Shown piece by piece: positions 36,955 through 38,924 of a stretch of DNA of 64,000 nucleotides. The translations under genes were made by a program, and so were the position numbers. Within the stretch, counting starts at the first letter, position 1, and each line of letters begins with the position of its first letter. Under the pieces are notes generated by a model. That model was not told the origin of the DNA and did not search any database. It saw only the letters and a program-made list of their open reading frames with translations. The stretch comes from Candidatus Heimdallarchaeum endolithica (GTDB taxonomy: Archaea; Asgardarchaeota; Heimdallarchaeia; Heimdallarchaeales; Heimdallarchaeaceae), in NCBI GenBank assembly GCA_021513715.1, contig CP084167.1, positions 672,001 through 736,000 of the forward strand. The letters are read 5' to 3'.

Positions 36955-37143
36955 ATTGAAGAACTTGAAAAGAAAGTAGAAATACCAAGAGAGTGGGTTA
37001 TAAAAACAGCTTATAAAATAGAAACTCTGGAAGGAGGTTATTATCTATGGAAAGAGTTTCTAGGAGCATTAAACAAGGATTCTCTACTGATGATAGAAAA
37101 CGACAGTTTACCCCATGAAAAAATTTTTTGTATAAATTCTTTA

Positions 37144-37155
37144 GGTTTTTAAATA
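37144..37155 (+). promoter_or_regulatory. Putative TATA box for tnpB
   Basis: GGTTTTTAAATA, conserved as GGTGTTTAAATA at 28015-28026. Confidence 0.45.
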
Positions 37156-37210
37156 AATTGCTTAATTAATAAATAGAGAAAAGAAAGTGAAGAAGAAAAA
37201 GGATTAGAAA

Positions 37211-38725
37211 ATGGAGAAAATAGTGAGAACATTAAGAGTAAGAGTAAAAACAGAAAAATTAACGAAGTTCAAAAAAGATAGAATGAGAAAGATAACAGGA
37301 AGAGATACTAGAATAATAGAAGAATATGTAAAAATAATAAGAAAAGAAGAAGAAAAAGTAATAAGAAAAATAAGCAAACAAGGAGAGATAAGACTAAAAG
37401 TGCATAAAGGCAAGTTAGATGAACTAACACTAACAACAACAAAGAAAACAAATAAGAAAAAAAGGACAGTTGTACCCTATGATCTCAAAAAAAAGTTTCC
37501 TAATTGTTCTCACGATGAATTTCAAGAGTGTAGAGATGTAGCAGTACAACTTTATGAACAAGGATATAACAAAAAAAAGAACAAAAAAAGAAAAAAAGGA
37601 TATATTTTACCACCAGTAAAACGAGCAAGAAAACAACTAATCAATAAAAATAGATTTATCATAAAACATTTGCCTAAAGGGAAAAACACTCTTTCTCGTT
37701 GGTGGGTAGGGATAAGAGACTCATTAGACACACAAAAAAGAAAAAAACGAACACATCGAAGACTATGGATACCACTAGAAATGAGTGAATATCACCAAAA
37801 AGAAATAAGAAAAGGACAAGTAAAAAGTCTAGAATTAAAATATAACTCACAAAAAAACAGTTGGTGGGTAAATTTTCAGATAACAATTATTCCTCAAGCA
37901 GATCTCTACAAGAAAAAAAAAGTTGACTCTTCTCTTCTTCCTCCAGCTGTGCTGGGAATAGATCTGGGAGAAAAAATACCTGGAGCAGGAGTGTTATTAA
38001 CATCAACAGGTAAAATATCTCCCAATCATATTTTCTTCTGGAAAATGAAAGAATGGAAAAAAAGGAAGTATATCTATCAACAGAAAATAAGAAGATTGCA
38101 ACGAAAACTTGCAAAAAAGAAGAATACATGTAAAGACAAAAGAAGCAATAAAGGATATCAAACATTAAAAAAATTAAGAAAAAGATATCAGACGCTCTCT
38201 CATGCTTATTTATATGCTTTTATCAATGAGTTGTGGAAAGATATTGTTGAACTTACACAGGATTATAATTTAGTCGTTGTTGTTGGTTACCCCAAGGGAG
38301 TACACTCGAAATTAAGAAAAAAAGTAATGAATCAAGACTACAGACCACAGAACTCTTCTACTCGTTTTACTCGTAAAAAGGTTCACCCGTGGAATTACTA
38401 CCAAATAGTTACTCTTCTTCGACGAATGTGTCTTCTAAATGGGTTAGAACCCGAACGTATCCTCACCTTACAGGAATATCTTACCTCTTCTCTTTGCTCA
38501 AAATGTGGACGAAAGACTATTCGACCTGTTAGAGGTCTTGTTTATTGTTCTCATTGTCATTATACTCTTCACTCTGACCTTACCGGTGCAATCAACATCG
38601 GGAAATTGTTTCTTCGTTTTCTTTTTCGCCCCCGAGCATCTACACTAGTTGATTATCTTACTGGACAACACTTTAGTCTCACCTTTTATACTTCCTTCAG
38701 GGGTCTCAACCAGTGGTTGAAATAG
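37211..38725 (+). CDS. tnpB: TnpB-family RNA-guided nuclease with rearranged (Fanzor-type) RuvC-II
   Basis: LGIDLG, VVVGYP, QEYLTS-x2-CSKC...CSHC, HSDLTGAINI. Confidence 0.9.
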   Translation: MEKIVRTLRVRVKTEKLTKFKKDRMRKITGRDTRIIEEYVKIIRKEEEKVIRKISKQGEIRLKVHKGKLDELTLTTTKKTNKKKRTVVPYDLKKKFPNCSHDEFQECRDVAVQLYEQGYNKKKNKKRKKGYILPPVKRARKQLINKNRFIIKHLPKGKNTLSRWWVGIRDSLDTQKRKKRTHRRLWIPLEMSEYHQKEIRKGQVKSLELKYNSQKNSWWVNFQITIIPQADLYKKKKVDSSLLPPAVLGIDLGEKIPGAGVLLTSTGKISPNHIFFWKMKEWKKRKYIYQQKIRRLQRKLAKKKNTCKDKRSNKGYQTLKKLRKRYQTLSHAYLYAFINELWKDIVELTQDYNLVVVVGYPKGVHSKLRKKVMNQDYRPQNSSTRFTRKKVHPWNYYQIVTLLRRMCLLNGLEPERILTLQEYLTSSLCSKCGRKTIRPVRGLVYCSHCHYTLHSDLTGAINIGKLFLRFLFRPRASTLVDYLTGQHFSLTFYTSFRGLNQWLK

Positions 38726-38924
38726 ACCTATGTACTATTATACCATAATGGTAGAATACTTAGTACTCGTGGAGTGAAGAGTTCTACTCTTCTTTATGCG
38801 TCCCACGATTCCTAGATGATGTCAGTATGCTCAAACATCTGTTTCAGCGTTTGTATTCTTCCACTGACGTAGTAGGAGAAAATTGTACAAAAAATTAACT
38901 CATGAAGAAGAATACTTGATAAAC
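38726..38924 (+). ncRNA. Putative omega-RNA scaffold plus flanking guide
   Basis: Stems GTACTA/TAGTAC, TCGTGG/CCACGA, GAAGAGT/ACTCTTC, ATGTCAGT/ACTGACGT; covaries with 19774-20029. Confidence 0.65.

Follow-up and report, generated by a model that had tools for sequence, protein, structure and literature searches.

The locus examined here raises the question of what kind of mobile element carries a TnpB nuclease with a Fanzor-type active site in an Asgard archaeon, how such an element moves, and whether its nuclease is close to the ancestors of the Fanzors. The stretch of DNA that was analysed, hereafter the window, comprises 64,000 nucleotides of Candidatus Heimdallarchaeum endolithica (contig CP084167.1, positions 672,001 to 736,000), and its attribution to an Asgard archaeal host was upheld. 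The genome (GC content 30.8%) is represented by one closed contig, called C1 below, with a marker completeness of 92.6%. In this window, a host gene is interrupted by a real, recently active and non-autonomous element encoding TnpB, hereafter the query. Our results make it probable that this is an IS607-like element of the Heimdallarchaeaceae, with an AT core and moved in trans, whose TnpB cargo would be guided from the host flank and would recognize a target-adjacent motif (TAM) of the form VCAT. The original prediction, drawn from the sequence of the window alone, had instead seen a pro-Fanzor-like system inserted at CATG.

Ends, junctions and copies of the element

The two ends lie where they had first been placed, at positions 37114 and 38904, and they are inverted matches of each other at 18/22 positions, or 14/18 leaving out CATG. 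Genome-wide, 7,223 pairs of CATG are spaced 1.5-2.1 kb apart and just 10 of them have an inverted identity of at least 14/18, all 10/10 being elements of the query's TnpB family. Therefore, the inverted ends are not due to chance. A second copy, 99% identical (14 single-nucleotide differences), is found at C1:1466407-1464617 with identical boundaries and unrelated flanks. Excision of the element rejoins the host reading frame (SLPH to EEEY) as originally described, in agreement with the gene of Ca. Heimdallarchaeum aukensis PM71, the sister species and closest relative among the genomes compared, in which the same site lies in an unbroken reading frame of ~850 codons and represents an empty allele. 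The only substantial open reading frame (ORF) of the element is tnpB (37211-38725, 504 aa). As for the interrupted gene itself (window 35608-39965), its 850-aa product has charged repeats, a possible helix-turn-helix (HTH) and tetratricopeptide repeats (TPRs), and it bears a premature TAA codon (36952-36954) that the sister species does not have.

The target is shorter than had been assumed. We compared 42 complete elements of the host genome (14 with TnpBs of the query clade, 18 copies of mini-element 1, 7 of mini-element 2 and 3 of family C, all described below). AT occupies positions 2-3 of both junction tetranucleotides in 42/42, whereas the left and right tetranucleotides are identical in just 24/42; in family C and mini-element 2 the right junction is always GAT(G/A), and one subfamily invariably has CATG...GAT(G/A). 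Insertions of the sister species at sites that are empty here follow the same pattern, with GATG...CATA facing an empty GATA and CATG...CATA facing an empty CATA. The search for empty alleles thus confirmed the uninterrupted host gene, but the orthologous empty sites give AT and not CATG, and the proposal of CATG as the target or duplicated unit was not confirmed. The junction rule is host-N, AT, element, AT, host-N.

IS607 elements have a 2-bp core, an imperfect subterminal inverted repeat and short repeated motifs, and their core is usually, not universally, GG (PMC6188088). The element has a 2-bp core that is identical at both junctions and in the target, without any longer duplication, although a 2-bp duplication looks alike by sequence. 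It also has the imperfect subterminal inverted repeat and short direct repeats, the tandem end motifs being clear in subfamily A and mini-element 2 and weaker in the query copy. Its core is AT, not the GG typical of IS607. The asymmetric hairpin ends and Y1 TnpA of IS200/IS605 elements, and their insertion at the 3' side of a 4-5 nt motif with no core in common, were not observed, as the ends are symmetric and AT is shared. With their 2-bp core, imperfect subterminal repeat and short repeated motifs, the ends therefore fit the IS607 anatomy better than a Fanzor1-type transposon with terminal inverted repeats (TIRs) and target-site duplications. The earlier description of a mobile TnpB element without a transposase, with inverted ends and belonging neither to IS605 nor to the GG-core elements, was upheld. 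We use "IS607-like" as a working description with an AT core; membership in the family would need a TnpA, and none was found.

The host genome contains ~45 AT-core elements with a common end type, comprising three unrelated TnpB lineages and mini-elements that carry only a guide RNA. The genome search that had been proposed thus found further copies with shared ends (42 complete elements in all, the copy with 14 differences being one of them). The 14 complete elements of the query clade divide into 2 of subfamily B, to which the query belongs, and 12 of subfamily A, with ~52% aa identity to the query and a TTTTTATA motif at a position similar to the query's TATA-box-like stretch. The ERGTS fragment at window ~19372-19767 belongs to this more distant subfamily (59% aa identity to the query). 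Family C (3 elements) encodes an unrelated TnpB with the canonical Glu, and the 3' half of mini-element 2 is ~80% identical to it. The same end style is found in related genera, both on tnpB elements and on minis. Since this end type is common to three TnpB lineages that are unrelated, as well as to two minis without an ORF, it must follow an enzyme acting in trans, not the nuclease. An autonomous copy with a transposase was not found among the family loci gathered by their end pattern, and a second pattern gave no matches. We found no description of these AT-core elements in the literature, although their single ingredients are each known.

Several observations accompany this family. The third TnpB lineage, IS605-like, is located at ~C1:597976-599493 and is likewise bounded by inverted ends with an AT core. 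On its left, the flank is TTGAT (a single site), which is the TAM of ISDra2. The two mini-elements retain scaffolds that resemble omegaRNAs, each of a different TnpB family, and each copy would supply another guide; one copy of mini-element 1 (C1:925508-925884) is inserted at the 5' end of the genome's sole Y1 tnpA gene. An IS5-like DDE element (window 34577-35580, 1004 bp, ~27 full copies, TIR starting AAGCATGTCC, mostly 6-bp duplications) was considered as a CATG-flanked relative and rejected, because its CATG lies inside its own TIR and its duplications are of ~6 bp. This internal CATG is a target on offer to the AT-core elements.

The search for a mobilising enzyme

In the favoured reading, an enzyme encoded elsewhere would bind T-tract motifs near both ends, the left-end motif being its putative binding site. 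Most likely by serine-recombinase chemistry, a circle would be excised with its ends joined at the AT dinucleotide, and it would reinsert at N-AT-N, with CATG preferred, so that only AT is shared. In the host genome, a Cas1 profile retrieved CRISPR-linked genes only, and no IS630-type or IS110 genes were detected. There is one tyrosine integrase, not tied to AT-core ends, and a single Y1 gene, which belongs to another TnpB. A serine TnpA with a MerR-HTH was found neither in the element, nor in the genome, nor in the DNA next to ~165 related loci. The resolvase family is represented by just two genes, both for small serine recombinases of the chromosome (C1:316728-317447 and C1:405348-406097), which are paralogous, retain the catalytic motif Y-x-R-x-S, are syntenic across the Heimdallarchaeaceae and are apparently vertically inherited. 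They are present in 20/21 genomes of the family versus 0/180 other Asgard genomes searched.

A more specific version of the favoured reading, in which the elements parasitise one of these two domesticated recombinases, can be put forward only tentatively, the balance being against it. These genes are the sole resolvase-family genes available, their catalytic motif and synteny are maintained, and they share their family range with the AT-core TnpB clade. Nevertheless, this co-distribution amounts to one evolutionary event and proves nothing; the genes also occur in members of the family where no elements were detected, the N-terminal MerR domain of IS607 TnpA is missing from them, and their extra copies are all located outside AT-core ends. 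If a host recombinase does move these elements, they would be an unusual example of transposons exploiting a domesticated enzyme, in a lineage near the eukaryotes.

The symmetry of the inverted ends could also be explained by a DDE cut-and-paste element with true TIRs and a 2-bp AT duplication (IS630/Tc1-like), whose transposase is absent, lost or unrecognised. Precedents have been described both for TnpBs associated with DDE enzymes within inverted terminal repeats and for solo TnpBs mobilised in trans (PMC10691335). However, the genome has no IS630-type gene, the abundant IS5-like element has other TIRs and ~6-bp duplications, the other repeated insertion sequences have other ends, and the outermost bases of the AT-core elements differ between the two ends (G...G in family C), which is odd for DDE termini. 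We consider this explanation unlikely and retain movement by a serine recombinase as the favoured one.

The TnpB, its RuvC site and its relatives

The RuvC triad and zinc finger expected of an OMEGA TnpB are intact. The Asp residues of RuvC-I and RuvC-III, the Gly at the RuvC-II position and the Glu before the zinc finger were confirmed at their codons (D251, 37961; G359 in VVVGYP, 38285; E422 in QEYLTS, 38474; D456, 38576). Across 30 homologs, D251, E422, D456 and the four zinc-finger cysteines are invariant, and G359 nearly so. In the predicted structure (mean predicted confidence, pLDDT, 81), G359 lies inside strand 353-360 and E422 ends strand 417-421, a layout that matches the one described for RuvC-II-rearranged (RIIr) TnpBs (PMC10691335). 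The closest folds are those of Cas12f and TnpB (Z of 18.5 for Cas12f, 16.5 for ISDra2 TnpB and 14.5 for Fanzor2), and profile searches give Cas12f E ~1e-20 versus 3e-10 for Fanzor2 9b0l. Fanzor1 is not listed among the sequence or fold matches to the query, which does not exclude an affinity.

Pro-Fanzors are defined by a DPG at RuvC-I together with the shifted Glu (Yoon et al., 10.1101/2023.08.09.552727). The query has the shifted Glu, with G359 and E422 aligning with the Fanzor2 columns, but D251 is followed by L-G, and DLG or a near variant is found throughout its clade. In a phylogeny of the RuvC region (IQ-TREE, LG+G4, 77 rows, 237 columns, references collected by motif and Fanzor1 left out), the query branched in a Heimdallarchaeaceae group (100/99) nested in a clade of 21 rows (100/99). 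The 12 viral DPG proteins, one of which was checked against Fanzor2 9b0l (E=1.6e-61), formed a separate clade (100/98) beside TnpBs with the canonical Glu (97/99). The forced union of the query clade with the DPG/Fanzor2 set was rejected by the approximately unbiased (AU) test (p=0.013), to be read with the short alignment and a model without mixtures in mind. The site itself is widespread: a Gly with an alternative Glu marks one major prokaryotic clade and several further branches (PMC10691335), it is present in the archaeal IS605 TvTnpB, which is active (PMC10530073), and it also occurs in the host genome's ordinary Y1-linked IS605 TnpB (C1:923909). Consequently, it does not single out Fanzors and their closest relatives, as had been supposed, and the query's Fanzor-type site is convergent with that of Fanzor2.

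The view from which the study started, of a pro-Fanzor-like system near the Fanzor ancestor, carried by a TIR element of Fanzor1 style that duplicates CATG, must be weighed against these results. It could draw on the alignment of the Gly/shifted-Glu site with viral Fanzor2, on the Asgard host, on the inverted ends and on a tree that left out Fanzor1. DLG in place of DPG, the separate clades (AU p=0.013), the ranking of Cas12f (and of ISDra2 TnpB by fold) above Fanzor2 in profile and structure searches, and the absence of a 4-bp duplication all speak against it. It is largely refuted as to Fanzor2 and pro-Fanzors, and as a whole we regard it as highly improbable. The phylogeny with TnpB and Fanzor2 references and the structure prediction that had been proposed as checks therefore argue against kinship with Fanzor2 and for a rearranged RuvC-II layout. 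A tempting link from Asgard TnpBs to Fanzor origins is thereby removed, as the "Fanzor-type" site is widespread and its occurrence here is convergent with Fanzor2.

The named homologs of the query are from Asgard archaea. In 34/76 related loci, mostly from Thorarchaeota and nearly all outside the query's family, a gene of >1,200 codons adjoins tnpB, usually head to head; in a few of the 34 the partner homolog is shorter or partial. This giant partner has no Pfam or NCBIfam match and no significant Foldseek match, and its profile-profile comparison with two Cas1 sequences is weak (E=0.086). With its first 330 residues, the top 12 of 48,161 chains were Cas1 or casposase structures (Z 9.1-13.0, the next being 6.3); E93, H189 and D196 are invariant and D199 nearly so. 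On these structural matches and the conserved E93/H189/D199, we call it a Cas1-fold protein (aCas1). aCas1 is reportedly due to Makarova et al. 2020. Two aCas1-linked TnpB groups, Cas1H-Asgard-1/-2, have been described with a T-hypervariable-GTTCACTCA motif (Altae-Tran et al. 2023, PMC10691335).

The Thorarchaeota loci do present the T-variable-GTTCACTCA motif 3' of tnpB. It was not found 3' of the query tnpB, where the element ends with AGT-(end repeat)-ACTCAT. In the tree, the aCas1-linked loci form a group (98/94) inside the query's 100/99 clade, with the query in a separate subgroup; the group was delimited in part with an earlier tree, and the presence of a neighbouring aCas1 was verified for only some of its rows. 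The TnpB of the query's family is present in 18/31 family genomes, one being just a weak match, and aCas1 was found neither in the host genome (profile and tblastn) nor in any of these genomes (0/31). The query thus belongs to a sister lineage from which the aCas1 partner was either lost or always absent.

Some features of the aCas1-linked loci deserve mention on their own. In three of them, the "hypervariable region" before GTTCACTCA resembles a short hairpin by eye. This hairpin-like region may be a scaffold, with the guide then starting after ACTCA. One locus has a second scaffold-end motif in direct orientation, ~150 nt past the aCas1 stop on the far side of the aCas1-tnpB unit, like a tandem array. 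One short aCas1 homolog is fused C-terminally to a TnpB-type zinc-finger/RuvC-III segment, possibly through a rearranged locus or an assembly artefact. A lead to an IS607 transposase in aCas1-TnpB loci was not reproduced in the loci examined.

The sister relationship raises the possibility that the elements are relics of an aCas1-TnpB module, moved now or formerly by an Asgard Cas1-type integrase. Thorarchaeota tnpB genes are bracketed by inverted (AT)GAGTGAA..TTCACTC(AT), like the ATGAGT..ACTCAT ends here, and aCas1 is multi-copy in Thorarchaeota genomes, 4/5 of which have no resolvase. However, aCas1 was not found in the host genome or in the 31 genomes of the family, yet the two copies here are just 14 differences apart; moreover, unrelated TnpB lineages share the ends, and the characterised casposase makes 15-bp duplications (PMC9939771). 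We therefore judge this origin improbable. In the IS607-like reading that we prefer, the cargo would be a TnpB whose rearranged RuvC is intact (D251/E422/D456) and whose clade is restricted to Asgard archaea; its sisters in Thorarchaeota adjoin the giant Cas1-fold protein.

Predicted guide RNA and TAM, and comparison with known systems

The 150 nt preceding the right end fold better than shuffled sequences (z=-2.5), with a stem common to subfamily A, and no Rfam match was found for this predicted scaffold. Overall, folding z values of -2.5 to -3.1, conserved stems and a pseudoknot candidate point to a structured omegaRNA at the right end. The candidate would pair 38796-38801 (ATGCGT) with the terminal 38898-38903 (ACTCAT) in the query; in relatives, an internal ATGAGT/ATGATT pairs 6/6 with the terminal ACTCAT/AATCAT, including one compensatory change between subfamilies, the ATG part being preset by the search pattern. 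With such terminal pairing, the scaffold would run up to the core and the guide would come from the host flank. The TnpB would accordingly use the right-end omegaRNA, with the last bases ..ACUCAU closing the pseudoknot and the flank after AT serving as guide. Mini-element 1 retains a scaffold of the query's clade, which can be aligned to the scaffold of tnpB elements from related genera (z=4.9). No near match to the predicted guide beside VCAT was found elsewhere in the genome.

The insertion sites suggest which TAM each nuclease uses. For subfamilies A and B and mini-element 1, T precedes the left CAT at 2/35 sites, versus a background of 35% (p=5e-5), and at 0/23 listed sites in other genomes. 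For family C and mini-element 2, T is found at 9/10 sites (Fisher p=6e-7 versus 2/35). No comparable avoidance is seen at the mirror position of the right side (1/32 versus 14/32, p=2e-4). This left-only bias predicts a TAM of VCAT and suggests active selection by TnpB; for family C, the predicted TAM is TCAT. The right ends are T-CAT (subfamilies A and B, mini-element 1) and TT-GAT (family C, mini-element 2), neither of which would match the TAM predicted for its own nuclease. Most simply, insertions bearing a given TAM would be retained because the corresponding TnpB cuts alleles that are still empty: the query would cut empty alleles beside VCAT and spare the filled right junction (TCAT), favouring retention of the element. 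A TAM-shaped insertion profile has been reported for the IS607 element ISXfa1, for which the same selection was proposed. With one end system and nucleases of different predicted TAMs (VCAT versus TCAT), selection by TnpB becomes testable within one genome. The analysis also provides a scaffold, a guide start and a TAM prediction for a nuclease of the aCas1-linked clade.

Several points weigh against the favoured reading. A 2-bp crossover core, a 2-bp AT duplication by a DDE enzyme and a blunt TG..CA insertion would leave identical junction sequences, and the inverted ends, at a fixed symmetric distance from the core, are more TIR-like than in textbook IS607. A profile of IS607 TnpA built from related genomes gave no convincing match in the host genome, and no serine recombinase adjoins any of the ~165 related loci. 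The IS607 elements of related genomes were rejected as the same system, since they have CC/GG-type (CCG-type) ends. The query's own pseudoknot has one mismatch (5/6 pairs). Finally, the common descent of the elements makes their insertion sites partly dependent on each other, and a mobiliser preferring different targets for different subfamilies could produce a pattern resembling a TAM. On a separate note, the IS607 elements of other Heimdallarchaeaceae encode TnpBs of 640-660 aa, in which H-x-N-A-A replaces the D of RuvC-III.

Taking the reading further, the elements could form a distinct AT-core class without an autonomous member, hijacking a vertically inherited host serine recombinase. At least 3 unrelated TnpB/omegaRNA modules, one from the aCas1-linked clade, would have been captured, with minis that carry only a guide RNA spreading and providing their TnpB with many guides in trans, and each nuclease filtering the insertions of the shared enzyme by its own TAM. 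We offer this as a speculative scenario, possible but below even chances.

Features of the element, its host gene and related sequences (window coordinates)
Feature	Positions	Strand	Remarks
Whole element, including both junction 4-mers	37114..38904	+	Second copy, empty site of the sister species, junction rule from 42 elements
Element proper	37117-38901	+	Flanked by AT cores 37115-37116 and 38902-38903
Left end	37114..37135	+	N-AT-G, then T-tract motif TTTTTTGTA starting ~7 nt inwards
Right end	38883..38904	-	Inverted copy of the left-end motif, terminating T-CAT
TATA-box-like stretch	37146..37155	+	~55-65 nt 5' of tnpB; putative promoter
tnpB, 504 aa	37211..38725	+	RuvC-I D251 (DLG), Gly359, Glu422, C4 zinc finger 429-449, RuvC-III D456
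Predicted omegaRNA scaffold	38754..38903	+	Folding z=-2.5, stem conserved with subfamily A
Predicted guide	38904..38923	+	Host sequence following the AT core, as in the empty allele; expected from TnpB biology
Predicted TAM CCAT (family VCAT)	37113..37116	+	Host-derived save the shared AT core; predicted from site statistics
Host gene, 5' part	35608..37116	+	Repeat-HTH-TPR protein; premature TAA 36952-36954
Host gene, 3' part	38904..39965	+	TPR
3' remnant of a subfamily-A copy	19372..20029	+	tnpB C-terminus with ERGTS, scaffold, right end
Mini-element 1, 383 bp	27140..27522	-	~19 copies, AT-core ends, promoter-like block, omegaRNA-like scaffold, ORF-less
Mini-element 2, 356 bp	27973..28328	+	7 copies, AT-core ends (right end GATG)

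Among known nucleases, the RIIr branches, "TnpB2" and TvTnpB (Thermoplasma volcanium) share with the query a RuvC-II Gly and an alternative Glu before the zinc finger, a Glu proven essential in ApmFNuc. TvTnpB, however, sits in a Y1/IS605 element, and the query is longer and belongs to another element type. Pro-Fanzors and Fanzor2 (IS607-linked, DPG), as well as Fanzor1 in TIR transposons, have the same shifted catalytic Glu and a scaffold overlapping the inverted end, and in both Fanzors and the query's kind TnpB has been captured by several element types. In contrast to pro-Fanzors and Fanzor2, the query has no DPG, branches in a separate clade and has no target-site duplication past AT. With the Cas1H-Asgard TnpBs it shares a supported clade, the DLG/Gly/shifted-Glu site and a right end terminating in ACTCA, but it has no aCas1 neighbour, its C-terminus is ~70 aa shorter and its right end is without GTTCACTCA. 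The query's kind are dispersed multi-copy AT-core elements, whereas Cas1H-Asgard is a two-gene module.

The closest comparison is with the IS607 family (IS607, IS1535, ISC1926, ISXfa1) and its TnpB-only or omegaRNA-only derivatives. These have, like the query, a 2-bp core at the junctions and in the target without a longer duplication, an imperfect inverted repeat, short end motifs, a tnpB with a 3' scaffold ending at the core, and insertion sites biased to the presumed TAM. The query departs from them in its AT instead of GG, in its symmetric inverted motifs, in the absence of a MerR-resolvase TnpA from both element and genome, and in an end type that is common to three unrelated TnpB lineages.

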